Below, piece after piece: positions 5,628 to 58,229 of a DNA stretch of 64,000 nucleotides; within the stretch, counting starts at the first letter, position 1, and each line of letters begins with the position of its first letter. The notes under the pieces were generated by a model. That model did no database searches. It saw only the letters and a program-made list of their open reading frames with translations, and was not told where the DNA came from. Source of the DNA: Candidatus Yanofskybacteria bacterium (GTDB taxonomy: Bacteria > Patescibacteriota > Minisyncoccia > 2-02-FULL-40-12 > GWA2-44-9); NCBI GenBank assembly GCA_003514055.1, contig DOSG01000002.1, positions 13,985-77,984 of the forward strand. Direction: 5' to 3'. The position numbers and the translations under genes are program-made.

Positions 5628-6143
5628 ATGGCAGAAGTAAAAGCAAAATTAAATGGATTGCGTATGGCCCCAAGAAAAGTTAGGGCTATTACCCAATTGC
5701 TGAGAGGCAAGGATGCTTTGTTTGCCATAAATCAATTGGAATTTTTAATCAGAAAGCCAGCCAATCCAGTTAAGAAGTTACTCGAGTCTGCGATTGCTAG
5801 CGCTGAGAACGATTTTCAATTGGTTAAGGAGAACCTATTTATTAAAGAGTTCAGAGTTGACGAGGGAGTGAAGCTTAGAAGATTCAAGCCTAAAGGTTTT
5901 GGTCGCGCAGCCCTTATTCAAAAGAAGACCAGTCATGTAGTGTTGGTTCTCTCAGAAAGAGTCGCCGGTCTTAAGTCTGTGAATGTGGCCAAGGATGATG
6001 AGTCGAAAAAGGCTAAAGTTTCTAAGGTCAAAGAAGATAAGGCGTCCTCCAAGCTTGAAGATAAAAAGCCAAGCATAAAGAAAGAAATCGGGGCTAAGAA
6101 AGATGGCTTCGTTAAAAAGATATTCCAGAGGAAGGCAGTTTAA
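5628..6143 (+). CDS. rplV: 50S ribosomal protein L22 with ~60-aa Lys-rich C-terminal extension
   Basis: L22 core AKLNGLRMAPRKVR...; 171 aa versus about 110. Confidence 0.92.
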   Translation: MAEVKAKLNGLRMAPRKVRAITQLLRGKDALFAINQLEFLIRKPANPVKKLLESAIASAENDFQLVKENLFIKEFRVDEGVKLRRFKPKGFGRAALIQKKTSHVVLVLSERVAGLKSVNVAKDDESKKAKVSKVKEDKASSKLEDKKPSIKKEIGAKKDGFVKKIFQRKAV

Positions 6144-6166
6144 TATTATAAATCCAAATAAATAAT

Positions 6167-6805
6167 ATGGGTCATAAGATTTCACCAACATCATTCAGGA
6201 TAGGAATACAAAAAGACTGGCTGTCTCGCTGGTTTGGCCAACGAAAATATATATCACTCTTGAAGGACGATGTTGCTGTTAGAGCTTTTCTTGAGAAGAA
6301 GATGAAGAATATGTCCGTCGATCGCGTCGAAATAGAGCGCGGTACAGATTTACTGAACATAATTATCTTTAGCTCGAGGCCGGGATTATTGATTGGTAGA
6401 GGAGGAACTGGGATAGATGAGCTTAAGACTGCGATACGCAAGGTTTTAAAAAAGAAGGTTGGCGTTAGGATCGAGATTCAGGAGATAAAGAATCCTGAGT
6501 CTTCAGCTGCGATTATGGCCGAATCCATTGCGGATCAGATTGAGAAAAGATTACCATTCAGAAGAATAATGAAGCAAACTTTAGCTAAGATAATCGCCAG
6601 TAAGCAGGCTAAAGGTGCCAAAATTCAGTTAAGTGGAAGATTGGATGGCGCCGAGATTGCTAGAACAGAGCACTTAGAGGAGGGCAATCTGCCGTTACAA
6701 ACTTTGAGAGCCGACATAGATTACGCAAAATATACAGCCAGAACGACATACGGAGCGATTGGTATCAAGGTTTGGATATTTAAAGGCTTAACTTTCGACA
6801 AATAA
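6167..6805 (+). CDS. rpsC: 30S ribosomal protein S3
   Basis: MGHKISPTSFRIGI..., KH domain. Confidence 0.95.
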   Translation: MGHKISPTSFRIGIQKDWLSRWFGQRKYISLLKDDVAVRAFLEKKMKNMSVDRVEIERGTDLLNIIIFSSRPGLLIGRGGTGIDELKTAIRKVLKKKVGVRIEIQEIKNPESSAAIMAESIADQIEKRLPFRRIMKQTLAKIIASKQAKGAKIQLSGRLDGAEIARTEHLEEGNLPLQTLRADIDYAKYTARTTYGAIGIKVWIFKGLTFDK

Positions 6806-14447: not shown

Positions 14448-15497
14448 ATGATTAAATGGCCATTCGGTATAACTGAATATCTTAAGGACTTCTTTATTCC
14501 TTCTAAGAACAACAACTATCAGCCCAAAAGTCTGGGCAATAGGAGTTTTTTCATAATCCTTTCGATACTTGTAGCGATAAAGCTCCTAAGCATTTTTTCT
14601 TTTTATGAATTTCTTGGTGCCGATATTTTTAATCAGGTTTCTCAATCTGACCTATTGGCGCTAACCAATGATGTAAGGAGAGACAACGGGGTCCCAGTAT
14701 TAAATCAGAGCGTGGCCCTAAATGCCTCGGCTCAGATGAAGTTGGCAGACATGTTCGATAAAAATTATTTTGCGCACGAGTCCCCAAGCAATATTTCTCC
14801 TTGGAATTGGTTTGATCGAGCTAAATACAGTTATTCTATCGCGGGTGAGAATCTGGCTATGAACTTCGTTTCTACTAATGAAGTTGTTAAGGCTTGGATT
14901 AATTCAGGATCTCATAAGAAAAATTTACTATACAAAGATTTTGTTGATACTGGTATAGCCGTTGGTTCTGGCAAGATTAATGGGCAGAATACTATAGTCG
15001 TAGTTCAGCATTTCGGCAAGCCATTAGTCCAGCCTAAGTCGGCTAGTGTAGTTTCTGAACCGAGACCAATTGTTAAAGCTAGTACGGCGGCCGTAAGTCC
15101 CAAACCCAAGGCCAAGCCGACAGTAAGTTCGACGCCAGAACCGGTTAAAAAGATTAGTCCGATATCTTTGCTAATGGCTCCCGGCGGACAAGTAAAAGAT
15201 GTCATTACGACGATCAGCAGTGATGAGAACAACCAAGAGAAGGACCCAGCTTATGGGGCTTATTACTCGAACGTAGCGTTAAATGATGCTTTGATCGCTG
15301 GAGCGCTGTTGGCTGCCCTGATCCTAATCCTCAAAATTTTTGTTGTCATAAAGGTCCAGTATCCACGGCTAATACTTAGGGGAATCCTCCTGCTGGTAAT
15401 TAGTCTTGCTCTCATATATTTCAAGGATTATAGATTCTTGCAGGGCAATATAATTATCAGTACTGGGAACACGGCCTCAATACAAAATCAAAAATAA
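14448..15497 (+). CDS. Membrane-anchored CAP/SCP/PR-1 (YkwD-like) domain protein with Pro/Ser/Lys linker and C-terminal TM
   Basis: CAP motifs ...AHESP...GENLA...W..S..H..N.L; N- and C-terminal hydrophobic helices. Confidence 0.7.
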   Translation: MIKWPFGITEYLKDFFIPSKNNNYQPKSLGNRSFFIILSILVAIKLLSIFSFYEFLGADIFNQVSQSDLLALTNDVRRDNGVPVLNQSVALNASAQMKLADMFDKNYFAHESPSNISPWNWFDRAKYSYSIAGENLAMNFVSTNEVVKAWINSGSHKKNLLYKDFVDTGIAVGSGKINGQNTIVVVQHFGKPLVQPKSASVVSEPRPIVKASTAAVSPKPKAKPTVSSTPEPVKKISPISLLMAPGGQVKDVITTISSDENNQEKDPAYGAYYSNVALNDALIAGALLAALILILKIFVVIKVQYPRLILRGILLLVISLALIYFKDYRFLQGNIIISTGNTASIQNQK

Positions 15498-15501
15498 TAA
15501 A

Positions 15502-16368
15502 ATGAGAAGCTTATTTTTTATAAAAAAGAATAGTGCTGTAATCAAGACTTCAAATCCGGAGCCGGGGTTTTATGCTTCCCTGGAAGAGGTGAAAGAAGTT
15601 CCGACTACATATAACCGCGTGATAAGATTACTCGGTGTCTTTGCTGTGGCTTTCTTGGTAATCGTGTTGATAGCTAATATTGGAAATATCTTTGGTATCG
15701 CTAACGATTCGGTCAATCCAAAGCTAACCGAAGAAGAGAAGAATGCTCAGATGACAGAATTTTATAGGAAAACCTATGGCTATGGATCGGGCTATCCGGA
15801 TGATGGTTTTGGTGGATCAAATGTACCAGAGCTGAGCGCTTATCCAACTAATGGAAGTGTGGCTGGAGACATAGATTTCATCCCCGCTAACAATAATAGT
15901 CAAGCACAAACAAATAATTCGGCAGCCTCAATCGGGAGCTCCGTACAAGCAATTTCTTCTAACTATGTTTACATCCCCAAGTTAGGAATAAAGGTACCGC
16001 TGGTGATATCGAGCAAAACAGATTCAAAATCTCTACTCGCGGAATTGAATAAAGGCGTTTTAGTATATCCTCAATCGTCTATCCCGGGCGACGGGGGCAT
16101 GACGGTTATCGTTGGGCACTCTTCTTCTAATACTTTAGGAGCTAAATATGGACGAGTTTTCTCTGGTCTATCTAAACTAAGCGGGGGAGATCAGATATTC
16201 ATCAATTTCAATGGAAAAGATTATACATACAATGTAGAGATAAAGAAGACGGGCACAGTAGAAGAGCTTGCCAATCTCGGGATAAACAATGACTTGGTGC
16301 TGGCTACCTGCTGGCCAATCGGGACCGATAGGAACAGGATAATAATAGGTGCTAATTTACAGAGGTAG
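15502..16368 (+). CDS. Sortase-family transpeptidase
   Basis: N-terminal TM; catalytic His (TVIVGHSS), Cys (LVLATCWP) and Arg (TDRNRIIIGA). Confidence 0.75.
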   Translation: MRSLFFIKKNSAVIKTSNPEPGFYASLEEVKEVPTTYNRVIRLLGVFAVAFLVIVLIANIGNIFGIANDSVNPKLTEEEKNAQMTEFYRKTYGYGSGYPDDGFGGSNVPELSAYPTNGSVAGDIDFIPANNNSQAQTNNSAASIGSSVQAISSNYVYIPKLGIKVPLVISSKTDSKSLLAELNKGVLVYPQSSIPGDGGMTVIVGHSSSNTLGAKYGRVFSGLSKLSGGDQIFINFNGKDYTYNVEIKKTGTVEELANLGINNDLVLATCWPIGTDRNRIIIGANLQR

Positions 16369-16420
16369 GCGGGAAAGGTAGTTGACACGATTAAAATAAA
16401 ATGACATAATATAAAATAAC

Positions 16421-18361
<1,941 letters not shown>

Positions 18362-18537: not shown

Positions 18538-19014
18538 GCCTGTACTTAAATATATGGATAAATCACTACAACTTCTGGTCAAAAGCGGCTGATTGGTCTA
18601 GTGTATTTTTATGCTCTAATCAGAAGCCGCTCGGAAGCGGTAATTTTTTTAAGAGTTTATCTAGACGAGTATCGCGAGTATGGTAATTAAACTCTTACCC
18701 CGCATCCGTAGGCGTAAATGTGTGGTAGAGATAAGTGGATGCAGATAGTATTCGTAGGGATTAAAAATTATACCTTGGCTAGTGGATGGCGGGGTGATCA
18801 AAAGATTGGCTCTCGACGATAGGCCACTAGGCGGCTCTTCGCTGACAGCTAATGAAAGAAGCTTGAAAATTTGTTAGTACGCTTTAGTAGAACGAATTGG
18901 ATATTTGTTTTACTAAAAGCGGGAAAATGCATTAAGTAAAGAAATCACACTGATAGTTACTCATTTGTAGTTAGTAAGAAGAAATATTTATCTAATTTTT
19001 GTAAATCAAAATTT

Positions 19015-22000
19015 AGACGGATATAAGGGCGTATGGAGGATGCCTAGACACTAGAAGGCGATGAAGGTCGTGGCGTGACTGCGATAAACTTCGGGGAGCC
19101 GTCGAGCGGGCTTTGATCCGGAGGTAACCGAATGGGGCAACCCAATATGACAAACTCATATTATCTCGCGTAAGCGAGATGCGTACCTGGGGAAGTGAAA
19201 CATCTCAGTACCCAGAGGAAAAGAGAACGAAGTTATCCCCTTAGTAGCGGCGAGCGAAAAGGGAACAGCCTAAACCGATTTCATAATTTATTATGTCGTC
19301 GGGGTAATAGGGATAGTACAACTAAAAATTTGAATTTCGGTCTTCTTGATCGAGATTCAAGTTTTTAAAAGAAGTTACAAATTCGTGCGTTAGCAGAATG
19401 GCCCTGGAATGGCCAACCAAAGAAGGTGACAGTCCTGTAAGCGAAAACAAACGAACTTCTGTATTATTTCCTGAGTAGCCCGGGATAAGGATGTCCTGGG
19501 TGAATTTGTCCATACTACTGGATAAGGCTAAATACTTCTAGTGATCGATAGTGAACCAGTACCGTGAGGGAAAGGTGAAAAGCACCCCGATGAGGGGAGT
19601 GAAATAGCAACTGAAACCATATGCCTACAAAGAGCAGGAGCCGTACTTTGCACAGAGATCCTAAGTCCTAAACGAATTGGAAAATTGTTTAGAGTTTGGA
19701 AATTAGAATTTAGAGTTTCCGTGCAGGGTGCGGTGACTGTGTGCCTATTGAAGAATGACCCAACGAGTTTATTTAAATTACACTCTAAGTCCTTATGGGA
19801 CGAAGGGGAAGGGAAACCGAGTGTTAATAGCGCGTCATCCAACTTAAATTTTTGGACTACGTAAGTTCAAAAATTTAAGTTGGATATGTAGTTTGAGTAA
19901 GACCCGAAGCCAGGCGAGCTAACCATGACCAGGATGAAGGTTACCGAAAGGTAACTGGAGGTCCGAACCAGTTGGTAGCGCAATACCATTGGATGAGTTG
20001 TGGTTCGTAGTGAAAAGCTTATCGAGCTTGGTAATAGCTGGTTCTCTCCGAAATGCCTTTAGGGGCAGCGTTGCACAGTAGCAGAGGGGGTAGAGCACTG
20101 AATGGTAATCCGTGCCCTTTTGGGTAGGACTACCAAACAAACTCCGAATACCTTTGTGGAATGTGCGGCAGTGAGTAAGCGGGGGCAAAGCTTCGTTTAC
20201 GCAAGGGAAACAGCCCAGATCACCGCTTAAGGTCCCAAAATTTAGACTAAGTGAAAAGGAAGTGTTTTGCCTTAGACAGGTAGGAGGTTGGCTTAGAAGC
20301 AGCCATCCTTTAAAGAGTGCGTAATAGCTCACTATTCGATCTCATCGCAAGATGAGGAGGCAAAGTGCGCCGAAAATTTATAGGGGCTAAGTCTAATACC
20401 GAAAGCGTGGGTTCGGTGATTTCATAAAGGAAAGTTGTGGACAGAGATAGTTCAAGGGAAGAACATCTGGCCTCATAAGCCAGAGATACGTGGCTCAACT
20501 CCACGGCTCTGTCCCATAAGTCGGGCGGGAACGACAATCAATTTCATACAGAACCTGTCTGCCAGACACAGCGGGTTCCACGATTGTTGTTTTCGTCCGA
20601 CAACCTTTCATCTCGTTCTTCGAGATGTCCTTTATGAAACCACCGAGCGGTAGGAGAGCATTCTGATCTGCTGTGAAGGTTCGCTGTGAAGCGGGCTGGA
20701 GCGGTCAGAAGGGAAAATGTTGGGATGAGTAACCGCAAGACCGGTTAAAGTCCGGTCCGTCGTAAGCCTAAGGTTTCCTCCGCGATGGCAATCATCGGAG
20801 GGTTAGGCGTCCCTAAGGATAACCGTGCTTTCGAGCGCGGGATGCCGATGGTGAGCCGGTTAATATTCCGGCCCCACTTATGTATATCTGATTGAGATGA
20901 CGGGCAACACAAGATCAAGCACATTATTGGATTTGATGTTTTCCACCCATAGACTTTCTACCAGGAAAATCCGGTAGAGGCCGCAAGGCAATGTCGAGGG
21001 TAGAAGAAATCGTCGCAAGACGAGATTTGATCGAAGAGGGCTCCAAGAAAAGTCTCTAATGTTAGTACATGAGTGCACGTACCTAAAACCGAAACAGGTG
21101 GGCTGGTGTAAGTGCACCAAGACGAACGGGTGATTATTGGTTAAGGAACTCGGCAAAAAAGCGGCCGTAAGTTCGCGATAAGGCCTGCCGCCGCAAGGCG
21201 GCCACAGCTAAAGAACCCCTGGCGACTGTTTATCAAAAACACAACTCCGTGCTAAGCCGAAAGGCGCTGTATACGGGGTGACGCTTGTCCGGTGCCGGAA
21301 CGTTAACGGTGGAGGTGGTATGTCGCAAGATGTACTGCTGACGCCCGAAGCGCCGGTGAACGACGGCAGTAACTATAACTGTCTAAAAGTAGCAAAATAC
21401 CTTGTGGGGTAAGTTCCCACGCGCATGAATAGCGGAACGACTGGGGGACTGTCTCAACCAATAGCCCGGTGAAAATGCAATGTCGGTAAAGATGCCGACT
21501 TCCCGCGCCAAGACGGAAAGACCCCGGAAGCTTCACTGCAGCTTGGTATTGGTCTACGAGTTGTTATACGTAGCGTAGTGAGTAGGATTTGAAGCCACAC
21601 TCTCGGGTGTGGTGGATCCGCCAATGAAACACTCATTTTAACGATTTGTAGCTCTAACCGGTAACACCCTAAAAGGGTGGGACAATAAAAGCTAAAGTAA
21701 GCTCCTGGTGATAGATTTATTACTGAGAATTTTAGTAATCAATCTTATGGAGTTATTTTAGATTTTATCAATGTCTTACTTTTCTAGGGTGTTATCGAGA
21801 CAGTGCCTGGCGGGCAGTTTAAGTGGGGCACTTTCCTCCCAAAAAGTAATGGAGGAGTTCATCAAGGTTGGCTAGCTCCGGATGGAAATCGGAGCGATAG
21901 TGTAAAGGCACAAGCCAGCTTTACTGCAAGGCGGATATGCCGCGCAGTTGCGAAAGCAGGACCTAGTGAACCGACTCTAACTCGTAGGAGTGGAGAAGAT

Positions 22001-22456
22001 CATCAGATAAAAGCTACTCCGGGGATAACAGGCTGGTACTGCCCGAGCGTTCACAGCGACGGCAGTGTTCGGCACCTCGATGTCGGCTCGCCCTATCCTG
22101 GGACTGAAGAAGGCCCCAAGGGTTTGGCTGTTCGCCAATTAAAAGGGTACGCGAGCTGGGTTCAAACCGTCGTGAGACAGGTTGGTCCATATCTGGCGTG
22201 GGCGTTGAATATTTGAGAGGGGTTGTCCCTAGTACGAGAGGACCGGGACGAACAAACCTCTGGTGAACCAGCTGTTCTGCCAAGAGCATCGCTGGATAGC
22301 TATGTTTGGTTCTGATAAGCGCTGAAAGCATATAAGCGCGAAGCAGGCCTCAAGATGAGATATTCTGGATCCCTTGTAGACTACAAGGTTGATAGGACTC
22401 AGGTGTAAGCACAGCGATGTGTTCAGCCGAGAGTTACTAATTGATCCTCATCCGTC
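19015..22456 (+). rRNA. rrl: 23S ribosomal RNA (about 3.4 kb; includes expansion insertions at about 20430-20650 and 21680-21790)
   Basis: Conserved 23S segments: ggatgcct...gaaggtcgtg; ggggaagtgaaacatctcagtacc; gtgaaccagtaccgtgagggaaaggtgaaaag; agacggaaagaccccg; ggggataacaggctg; cacctcgatgtcggctc; tagtacgagaggaccgg. Confidence 0.92.
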
Positions 22457-22547
22457 TAAATTTTGCTTAGCAAGATTTAGATATTTCTTCTGTAACTGTT
22501 AGTGTAATCACTTAATGTTTTTTGATAGAGTAGTTGGGAGTATCGAT

Positions 22548-22628
22548 TTTTCGAGTGCGGGCTGTATTTTCCTGATGGAAAATCACCCTCTCGCTCGGCG
22601 CCGTCGCGCCTGCGCGGGCCTCTCAAAA
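22548..22628 (+). repeat. Copy A of an ~80-nt structured intergenic repeat family, inside the 23S-5S spacer
   Basis: tttcgagtgcgggctgtattttcctgatggaaaatcaccctctcgctcggcgccgtcgcgcctgcgcgggcctctcaaaa; matches copies at 44.1, 50.9 and 52.7 kb. Confidence 0.75.
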
Positions 22629-22675
22629 CCGACACTCCCAGCTACTCTGGTAGTGTCAGAAAGATCGTGTTTAGT

Positions 22676-40755: not shown

Positions 40756-40761
40756 AATTTT

Positions 40762-40801
40762 AATGGCGGTCTTCTAAACCTGAAGGCCGCCATTGTTTTT
40801 C
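40762..40801 (+). terminator. Rho-independent terminator after phosphohexomutase
   Basis: aatggcggtcttc-taaacct-gaaggccgccatt then gttttt. Confidence 0.7.
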
Positions 40802-40850
40802 AGCCCGTACTCAAGAAAGCCACAGTCTCGCTCTAAACGCTCTTACATAA

Positions 40851-44059: not shown

Positions 44060-44090
44060 TTTGATTTTTTGCCTCGGAGGTGGATGTGAG

Positions 44091-44173
44091 TTTTGAGAGG
44101 CCCGCGCAGGCTCGACTGGAGCCGAGCGAGAGGGTGATTTCTCAGTAGAGAAATACAGCCCGTACTCGAGAAA
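44091..44173 (-). repeat. Copy B of the ~80-nt structured repeat family
   Basis: Reverse complement tttctcgagtacgggctgtatttctctactgagaaatcaccctctcgctcggctccagtcgagcctgcgcgggcctctcaaaa. Confidence 0.75.
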
Positions 44174-44191
44174 CTTATAGCCACCGTAGAT

Positions 44192-46585: not shown

Positions 46586-47049
46586 ATGTTAACTTATTTG
46601 CGATTTAAATGATATCATACGGGTCAAAAATATCAATGGCAATGATCGCTTGGATAATCACTTGTTCGACATGTCAGAATTTCCCAGCGAGAAATTCTGA
46701 CTAATTTCCTCGGCTCGCTCGTCCTTCTCCGGCAGTCGCCGGATTAGGACACCTGCCCGCTCGCCTCCGGATTGTCTCACAAGTGACTATCCTCGCTATT
46801 TTAGGTAGATGCGAAGCCTTAGTCATTTTGTGCAAGTTTTAATCTGTGCAAGCGAAAGCTCAAGTCTACAGCGAGAACTCGCGCAGGCGTTTCGGCTATA
46901 ACATATTTGATATAGCCCCGAAGGGGCGATAAGAAAACGGATCTTCGAAATGCCGAGCGTGTAGATAGTCGAGCTCGCAGGAAGCGAGAACTATCGGTTG
47001 AGTCGTGGGCTTGGGCTGGAGCGACTTGACTATCGGTGCAAAGAAATGA

Positions 47050-50451: not shown

Positions 50452-50566
50452 TCTTGACTTAAAAAAATCTACGACTATAATTAGCACTTAAGATATAAGA
50501 GTGCTAATTTTATTCGTAATCAATAGGATTAATTGGTTACGGGTTTGGTTGGCATATAAAATAAAC

Positions 50567-50860
50567 ATGTTAAAACCGCTATCTGATCACGTGGTACTGG
50601 AGCCAATCCGAGAAGAAAAAAAGAAAGGAGGGATAATCTTACCCGATACTTTAGATAAAGAAAGATCTGAGAAGGGCAAAGTGATTTCCGTGGGTCCTGG
50701 CAAATACGATCCGGCAGTTGCCGGAGGCAAAAGGATGCCTCTGCAGGTAAAGAAGGGCGATGTAGTTCTATTCACCAAGTATGGCCCGAACGAAGTTAAG
50801 ATGGATGGTAAAGAATATCTAATCGTCAAGGAAGACGATATCTTGGCAATAATAGACTAA
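50567..50860 (+). CDS. groES: Co-chaperonin GroES
   Basis: LKPLSDHVVLEP...; start set at MLKP. Confidence 0.93.
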   Translation: MLKPLSDHVVLEPIREEKKKGGIILPDTLDKERSEKGKVISVGPGKYDPAVAGGKRMPLQVKKGDVVLFTKYGPNEVKMDGKEYLIVKEDDILAIID

Positions 50861-50896
50861 TTAAAACCTAAACTTAAAAACGATCAGTAATGTGCA

Positions 50897-52636
<1,740 letters not shown>

Positions 52637-52676
52637 TCATTTTTTAAAGTCACGAGAAAGGGCATAGGTATGGGTT

Positions 52677-52798
52677 TTTCGAGTACGGGCTGTATTTCTC
52701 TACTGGGAAATCACCCTCTCCCTACAGAGACTTGGAGGATGGGCTAAAGCACCATCCCTCCGAGGCGGCGCCGTCGAGCCTGCGCGGGCCTCTCGAAA
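52677..52798 (+). repeat. Copy D of the repeat family, carrying a nested 45-nt hairpin insertion, inside the stem-loop of the groEL terminator
   Basis: tttcgagtacgggctgtatttctctactgggaaatcaccctctcc[ctacagagacttggaggatgggctaaagcaccatccctccgagg]cggcgccgtcgagcctgcgcgggcctctcgaaa; flanks gggcatagg...cctatgccc-ttttt. Confidence 0.75.
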
Positions 52799-52932
52799 CT
52801 CACGCCTATGCCCTTTTTGTTTGGCTGCAATAACCATGGCTGTCTTTTCGGCCTCAAAGACAGCCATGGTTATTGATTGACCGGAGCGACTTAATGTTCT
52901 AGAATTTAGGTAACAATTTAAATACAAATACT

Positions 52933-57826: not shown

Positions 57827-58229
57827 TTCAGTCGCTAGTTGAGAATACCTCTGGTAAAGTTGAAGGGCCGCCTGCAAATGCATTTACGTTGGTGAATTTG
57901 AAAGATAATCTTGTATCCGTAAAAGTTCTGGGGAAGAGTGGATTAAGTTACGAAATTAGAATCTAATACTGGAAAGACAGATAGTTTATGGCTATACTGT
58001 AATTGTTCGGATTTCTTCTACGACCCAATGTTTCCTTCAGGATGCCTTTGGACGTAACAGCGCTTTCCCGTTTCACTATTACGTGCCACCTTCCCCACGC
58101 CCCTGGCTTCATGCATTTTTGTTTGGCGCGATCTTTTCGAATTAGACATGATGATGGCGGAGCCCATATCTAATATAGGGCTACTCGCCAACTTGATGTA
58201 TAATACTGTAAATAACTAAATTTAAGCAT

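Follow-up and report, generated by a model that had tools for sequence, protein, structure and literature searches.

Genomes of the CPR/Patescibacteria are about 1 Mb in size and have almost no intergenic space. Among dispersed repeats, REP/REPIN elements are known to work as terminators or as stabilisers of mRNA 3' ends, and elements derived from IS200/IS605 have subterminal hairpins without inverted ends, insert 3' of a fixed tetranucleotide and show a strand bias. The REPs are simple hairpins of 20-40 nt in which a GTAG/CGTC head and the stems are conserved (PMC3733652, PMC3116915). GC-rich hairpin mobile repeats are also found in organelles, as the yeast mitochondrial GC clusters, the fungal double-hairpin elements and the sponge RHEs (PMC2800124). 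Here we describe a repeat family, previously uncatalogued and known so far only from one sub-clade of the ultra-small groundwater bacteria Candidatus Yanofskybacteria (CPR/Patescibacteria), of which one copy (copy D) lies between groEL and lemA in a 64,000-nt stretch of DNA, called the window.

In the window, groEL (51005-52636, plus strand) is separated from the start of lemA (52933) by a gap of 296 nt. The GroEL protein matches that of Candidatus Yanofskybacteria bacterium GW2011_GWF1_44_227 (CPR/Parcubacteria, groundwater) with 100% identity, and the groEL-lemA spacer is exactly identical in contigs of four other samples with the same or a near-identical GroEL. Within this spacer, gggcatagg (52660-52668) is complementary to cctatgccc (52805-52813), and the T-run TTTTTGTTT follows. 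The earlier note on this DNA had read the two arms as a terminator stem with a loop of 122 nt; the arms and the T-run are real, but the 9-bp arms are separated by 136 nt and the 3' arm had been placed one base off. An inverted-repeat search returned arms of 21 nt (52657-52677 and 52796-52816) that are 86% complementary, with 118 nt between them. Folding of 52657-52816 gave a long closing stem, followed by TTTTTGTTT, with a minimum free energy of -84 kcal/mol (z -7.7); the shuffled controls averaged -54.3 +/- 3.9 kcal/mol, and 0 of 200 reached -84. Folding, a check that the note had proposed, confirmed a strong stem. The closing stem, with the T-run after it, lies 21 nt past the groEL stop codon. 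Alignment of the four window copies placed a 42-nt insert in copy D only, and the insert folded alone at -20.9 kcal/mol (z -4.6). The features of copy D and the other copies are collected in Table 1.

Table 1. Repeat copies in the window and the parts of copy D (positions are those of the window)
Feature	Position	Strand	Remarks
Copy A, short form	22530-22646	+	23S-5S rRNA spacer; own 19-bp closing stem
Truncated 5' fragment, 33 nt	40801-40833	-	ends where an unrelated hairpin (40760-40800) starts
Copy B, short form	44073-44190	-	fills the spacer of two co-oriented genes; in L022 the orthologous genes meet at TAATG without a spacer
Copy C, short form	50879-50995	-	antisense, groES-groEL spacer; absent in L065, L022 and L067
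Copy D, P1 5' arm	52657-52674	+	outer aaagggcatagg copy-specific; inner tatggg is the semi-conserved (A)TATGR box
Copy D, P1b 5' strand TTTCGAG	52677-52683	+	family-conserved; partner 52792-52798
Copy D, P2 hairpin GGGcTGtATTTCTC-TACT-GGGAAATCACCC	52687-52716	+	two conserved bulges; covaries across subfamilies
Copy D, 42-nt extra arm at the P2/P3 junction	52724-52765	+	stems 52731-52744 / 52749-52764; signature of the long subfamily
Copy D, P3 hairpin GGCGC-CGTC-GAGCC	52767-52780	+	one G.A mismatch in copy D
Copy D, junction TGCGCGGGCCT, then P1b 3' strand CTCGAAA	52781-52798	+	junction 97% conserved
Copy D, P1 3' arm	52799-52816	+	ctcacg + cctatgccc + ttt
Copy D, T-run TTTTTGTTT	52814-52822	+	terminator-like; first three T's pairable with aaa at 52657-52659
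Perfect 20-bp hairpin	52828-52875	+	12 nt past copy D, outside the repeat; second terminator candidate

Besides the four full type-1 copies and one fragment in the window, metagenomes yielded seven further distinct type-1 copies. The four window copies scored 113-128 bits with the covariance model, and 0 chance matches are expected for the 55-nt 5' half of the repeat. The alignment and these scores supported the view in the earlier note that copy D belongs to a dispersed repeat and has an additional hairpin inside it. The family alignment was built from eleven distinct type-1 copies (four from the window and seven from the metagenome scan) and has 160 columns; a further type-1 copy was found in locus L066 with a second covariance model. 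Diverged members were detected by covariance models in three related Yanofskybacteria whose GroEL is 84-85% identical: five in 12 kb of L018, two in L022 and one in L066. No family members were found in 21 kb each of L067 (Yanofskybacteria, 80% GroEL identity) and L069 (Nomurabacteria); L067 bears a diversity-generating retroelement, with a reverse transcriptase and a bAvd-like gene at 15245-16666, adjoining a serine recombinase. A scan of genome contigs with a 21-base pattern gave three matches, all by chance in unrelated genomes, and 0 of the 40 loci from viral contigs were confirmed by the covariance model. Rfam 15 gave no match at the gathering score or at E<=10 for copies C and D, and none at E<=1 for L018; permissive E-values produced solely chance miRNA-like matches, on the perfect hairpin neighbouring copy D. 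The family has a GC content of about 57% in a genome of 42% GC, at a density of about one copy per 15 kb.

The core of about 85 nt is a three-way junction of P1b, a bulged P2 and a short P3 joined by near-invariant junction strands, and is four-way in copy D. P1b (TCGAG/CTCGA) comes first and is joined over 2 nt to P2, a bulged hairpin of 12 bp whose loop is TNNT; the linker TCTCGCT then leads to P3 (5 bp, loop C(A)GTC), after which comes TGCGCGGGCCT. The closing stem P1 lies outside the core, and while its inner 7 bp are semi-conserved, its outer 8-15 bp are unique to each copy. For the 41 modelled pairs, 88.7% of the cells were paired, compared with 36-48% in slid-register controls; double changes occurred in 21 pairs, and 0 of 500 shuffles matched this. 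Double changes occurred in 30 of the 41 pairs once the diverged members were included, in an alignment that was fitted to the structural model. Among the copies, P3 covaries as GGCGC/GCGCC, GGCTC/GAGCC and GAGCC/GGCTC. The diverged subfamilies of L018 and L022 keep the P1b/P2/P3 architecture through compensatory changes, with TGGAC/GTCCA in place of TCGAG/CTCGA in P1b, and with AAATGC/GCATTT or AACTCT/AGAGTT in place of ATTTCTC/GAGAAAT in P2. The type-2 copies have conserved P1 ends (GCCYAR...YTRGGC) between which the middle of P1 covaries, which indicates that the element itself keeps its arms complementary and that the target is not the only source of the pairing.

Mean pairwise identity was 0.31 in the outer 10 bp of P1, 0.54 in the inner 7 bp and 0.89 in the core, with 0.93-0.97 in the junction strands and 0.76 in the P3 stem. 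Such a gradient could arise from gene conversion among the cores or from a raised mutation rate in hairpin arms. Since the core and junction strands are better conserved than the stems, the pattern is also a signature of purifying selection on each copy, as a functional RNA or a protein-binding site.

One further structure was seen at the uvrC/holin junction of the window (46645-46799), where 27-nt arms (78% complementary) surround a P2-like hairpin, a P3-like CCGGCAGTCGCCGG hairpin and extra GC-rich sequence. It has the place and orientation of the family member at L018 1677-1788. The covariance models R1 and R2 do not detect this structure, which may be a distant relative of the repeat family.

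We then compared orthologous loci of relatives. L065, whose groEL is 92.6% identical at the nucleotide level, has no copy C, and an AT-rich palindromic repeat takes its place. Downstream of groEL, L065 bears a family member that is oriented the other way and whose arm, AAAAAAAGCGCAGATGTTGG, differs; the contig breaks off within this member. The groES-groEL spacer contains a copy in L066 and an oppositely oriented one in L018, and the groEL gene of L066 is followed by a plain terminator hairpin. Orthologous loci without indel polymorphism had been named in advance as evidence against an insertion history at this site; instead, presence, absence and orientation all differ between relatives. These differences show gain, loss and re-orientation of the family's DNA in intergenic gaps, and the gaps that contain the repeat turn over quickly.

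Other structured sequences were seen in the same gaps. The AT-rich repeat in the groES-groEL spacer of L065 (1567-1702) is a 'tctaaa/tttaga' palindromic repeat, and 34-nt pieces like it occur in the window at 19679-19712 and 57932-57965, one of them within the 23S gene. In L018 (11640-11915) and L022 (11640-11880), about 250 nt after groEL are enclosed in a stem of 20-25 bp, ttttgccaacctcattttc...gaaaatgaaattggcaaaa, and the enclosed cassette of L018 includes a type-2 family member.

The reading that we favour, and consider reasonably probable, is that copy D belongs to the long subfamily of a structured palindromic repeat that is mobile or amplified at the DNA level, that its closing stem was borne by the element or made on insertion, and that any use as a terminator is secondary. 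Several observations count against mobility. No transposase or other mobilising protein is linked to the family: the 64-kb window has no Y1 transposase homologue, and the Y1_Tnp (IS200-like) gene of L018 has ordinary end hairpins of its own and is not flanked by the repeat. No direct target-site duplications were found, the flanks of 11 of 11 type-1 copies being inverted complements. The possible orthologous pair formed by 46645-46799 and L018 1677-1788 would suggest long-term retention. The L018 transposase gene (5834-6262) lies in the groES neighbourhood with GC-rich end hairpins and no detectable link to the repeat.

The best surviving alternative, though a doubtful one, is that the repeats are a functional structured RNA family, either processing or stability elements (e.g., RNase III substrates) or small RNA genes. 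The junction core would then be under purifying selection in each copy, the closing helix would be free to covary, and the extra arm of copy D would be an optional helix of the kind that occurs in many RNA families. The compensatory changes in P1, P1b, P2 and P3, within and between subfamilies, fit this reading, as do the variable stems beside nearly invariant junction strands, the strong fold (z -6 to -8) and the presence of copies in an rRNA spacer and inside operons. The covarying middle of the type-2 closing stem, which cannot be target-derived, and the occurrence of two different optional hairpins at one junction (the diverged copy L022a has CCTGCCTGCCGGCAGGCAGG at the P2/P3 junction) are also in its favour. 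However, the covariation expected of a generic cis-acting RNA was found without a consistent orientation or an excess of G.U on the transcribed strand. Relative to the neighbouring genes, about 10 copies have the sense and 7 the antisense orientation. G.U-type and A.C-type mismatches numbered 19 and 21 when three inherited columns were excluded, and on the transcribed strand G.U was not above A.C (14 versus 21, derived from the mismatch counts and orientations). An apparent wobble strand asymmetry (38 A.C versus 19 G.U) vanished without the three inherited columns. The better-folding strand is the transcribed one in copies C and D and the non-transcribed one in copies A and B. Mixed orientation, the lack of a G.U excess and strand-mixed folding together do not favour a strand-specific RNA function. 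The absence of an Rfam family even at E<=10, the differences in presence and orientation within the same spacer between close relatives, and the existence of a truncated copy also stand against the RNA reading.

The closing stem bears on how the repeat, taken as a mobile or amplified DNA element, came to its sites. The earlier note had read the outer stem of copy D as the groEL terminator. We found that every copy is closed by a copy-specific stem, including those in the 23S-5S spacer and in the groES-groEL operon, and that a T-run is adjacent in 2-3 of about 13 closing stems. Three filled sites could be compared with empty ones in relatives at 60-85% protein identity, a distance at which an ancestral hairpin at those sites is possible. 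The empty groES-groEL spacer measures 16 nt (L022) or 2 nt (L067), the copy B (SBP-PGI) junction in L022 is an overlapping TAATG, and the uvrC-holin junction (the L018c site) is 11 nt in L022; none contains a hairpin. For the copy B site, a search for a relative at 90-99% identity found only relatives at <=62% identity. The three empty sites without a hairpin suggest that the closing stem is brought or made on insertion. In the model that we propose, the closing stem would arrive with the element or form at insertion, and would not be a prior hairpin of the host.

The diverged copy L022a is instructive in this respect. Its 5' arm overlaps the final two codons and the stop (tTA AAC TAA) of a conserved gene whose orthologues end in GLK*, GLN* or GLNH*, and its 3' arm is the exact complement, TTAGTTTA. 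The sequence suggests that one arm of L022a is a copy made from the opposite side. At quasi-palindromes, intrastrand template switching is a well-established process (Ripley-type mutations), and it would perfect and extend inverted repeats. Such switching would be a plausible route by which one arm or flank is copied onto the other, keeping the inverted repeats complementary. The outer arms are 54-56% GC, whereas local intergenic DNA is 17-38% GC; GC-rich arms in AT-rich intergenic DNA argue against simple copying of random flanks, and template switching leaves their GC-richness unexplained.

The small GC-rich palindrome CCTGCCTGCCGGCAGGCAGG recurs at three places, namely L022 6026-6045, L018 5318-5334 and L066 6963-6985. 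Its contexts are a family-member junction, another structured element at the orthologous site and a degenerate second copy of a tRNA gene, at whose 3' end it lies.

It is also conceivable, although we hold it to be rather unlikely, that the repeats represent a new class of element, either mobile DNA or a domesticated module, in which each copy carries or creates its own private closing helix. If so, one arm would be templated on the other arm or flank, and the core would always be presented as a self-contained fold. Within a minimal CPR genome, this fold would do no harm at gene ends or in the spacers of operons and rRNA genes, and a permissive junction would take up extra arms. If selection also acted on the core in each copy, the family would represent a functional nucleic-acid module that is present in high copy number and works with some protein partner.

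The history put forward in the earlier note was that the repeat entered the loop of a pre-existing groEL terminator, as an element that targets stem-loops, and that a second small hairpin later entered copy D. We regard this layered history as quite improbable. The outer stem of copy D, with its A-tract and T-run, does resemble the terminators of this genome; a plain terminator stands at this position in L066, the visible arm of the L065 copy, AAAAAAAGCGCAG..., is terminator-like, and at L018 9800-9990 a type-1 copy lies within the apparent P2 hairpin of a truncated type-2 copy, an arrangement compatible with insertion into a hairpin. In contrast, the closing stems of most copies have no A- or T-tracts, the post-groEL stems of the window and L065 are unrelated despite 92.6% groEL identity, and the three empty sites (0-16 nt) have no hairpin, so that targeting of stem-loops as a rule is not borne out.

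The second part of this history, a local insertion into copy D, fared no better. The hairpin itself is real and, in the window, confined to copy D. However, the same 42-nt hairpin (40-42 of 42 nt identical) is found at the same junction in three other loci, L008, L009 (also L015/L016) and L012, where flanks and closing stems are unrelated to those of copy D and to one another. No free-standing copy of the hairpin was found in the window or in any fetched locus. An identical arm at the same junction in unrelated loci is a trait inherited by the long subfamily and not an event of copy D. The 42-nt arm would have been acquired once in a progenitor, turning the three-way into a four-way junction, and then inherited by all long copies. 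We also considered the arm as the core-less closing stem of a nested copy, for which a weak likeness gave only marginal support (p about 0.04 and 0.06); it is possible from the sequence that the arm is a relic of a nested family member.

A multi-copy family of self-cleaving ribozymes is very improbable: a three- or four-way junction whose junction nucleotides are conserved and whose closing stem varies would suit a hammerhead-, twister-sister- or hatchet-like fold, but no Rfam ribozyme model matched at E<=10, orientation bias is absent, and inspection by eye shows no hammerhead core (CUGANGA between stems I and II), the linker being TCTCGCT. Likeness to hammerhead, twister and twister-sister was rejected by eye and with Rfam.

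Whatever its origin, copy D probably now serves as the groEL terminator or as a 3'-end stabiliser, a secondary use that its sequence and position suggest. The usual bidirectional terminators of this genome are perfect palindromes of A-tract, GC-stem and T-tract, and copy D (aaagggcatagg...cctatgcccttttt) has the same form. Copy D shares with intrinsic terminators a GC-rich stem with an immediate T-run, placed 3' of a stop codon and before a promoter-like site for lemA (52877-52905). It differs from them in that their loops are about 3-8 nt whereas copy D has a branched structure of 118-136 nt, and in that the family stem also occurs where termination would be harmful, in the groES-groEL and 23S-5S spacers. 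A scan with the intrinsic-terminator consensus does not call copy D, and the 20-bp hairpin just downstream is a competing terminator candidate. This hairpin belongs to another family, one of long perfect hairpins (ACAATGGCnGCCTTT...AAAGnCnGCCATTGT-like), whose members recur beside repeat copies, with sites at 52828-52875 and 40760-40800 in the window, at about 2990-3040 in L011 and at about 11985-12030 in L018; the one at 40.8 kb abuts the truncation point of a repeat copy.

Several neighbouring features of the window were recorded. A tRNA-Met (CAT) gene at 20441-20516 (ARAGORN; Rfam tRNA, 43 bits) lies inside the 23S rRNA gene (19013-22461), which is 3449 nt long against a 2925-nt model, and the tRNA-bearing insertion is enclosed in a 19-bp stem (20413-20431 / 20628-20646); the segment 20413-20646 resembles an rRNA intervening sequence with a tRNA inside it. 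Upstream of groES (50454-50507), a promoter-like TTGACT-16-TATAAT is followed by a CIRCE-type repeat, TTAGCACTT-N9-GAGTGCTAA (HrcA operator). Since the listed GTG start of groES (50501) is inside this repeat, the ATG at 50567 is the likelier start. Tandem hexanucleotide units GACNCC/AACGCC (period 6/12/18) lie in a coding-like region at 16917-17391 and would encode a low-complexity repeat segment of a protein.

In genomes with so little intergenic space, a branched, covarying repeat occupies spacers in operons, one rRNA spacer and the 3' ends of genes, with turnover between strains whose genes are 92% identical. It therefore offers a tractable case of how repeats invade and persist in minimal genomes, and of how an insertion may be made harmless, or useful as a terminator, when it is closed by its own stem. 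Its copy-specific, complementary GC-rich arms are unexplained by standard transposition chemistry and point either to arm-to-arm templating or to selection on each copy. In practice, the repeat breaks assemblies, as in L065, and yields spurious open reading frame calls, such as a 55-aa 'gene' on copy D in L006.

Comparison with known systems places the family among, and apart from, several of them. The rRNA intervening sequences (RNase III stems) are likewise cassettes closed by a long imperfect helix and transcribed, as is copy A; they differ in replacing specific rRNA helices without genome-wide dispersal. The organelle GC-rich repeats share structured modules in AT-rich compact genomes, nested arrangements and fast intergenic turnover. 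They are one or two simple hairpins with other hosts and sequences, whereas the repeats described here have a covarying junction and a variable closing stem. The IS200/IS605 pattern was not seen, as the repeats have inverted-repeat ends, no common flanking tetranucleotide and mixed orientations within 30 kb.

Hairpin-forming MITEs and similar repeats (Correia/NEMIS, ERIC, RUP and the Rickettsia palindromic elements) are also non-coding, 100-160 nt long, present in transcripts and folded as RNA; they can alter termination or processing, and their subfamilies differ by internal insertions. The family is, like MITEs, multi-copy, non-coding and polymorphic for presence and absence. MITEs, however, have conserved terminal inverted repeats and direct duplications (e.g., TA), whereas here the termini are unconserved (31% identity in the outer arms and 54% in the inner (A)TATGR/YCAYAT box) and the flanks are inverted. 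The RAYT-associated REP/REPIN elements of Proteobacteria are likewise multi-copy, GC-rich, intergenic, palindromic and present in both orientations, often just past stop codons or within operons, with long persistence. They differ from the present family, which has an 85-nt multi-branch core, copy-specific closing stems and no RAYT linked to it in the window or in L018; its unit is 117-160 nt, branched and variable in its stems, with CGTC/CTAC in hairpin loops only. The family is closest in behaviour to REP/REPIN elements and hairpin-forming MITEs, yet it departs from both in the features that define them.
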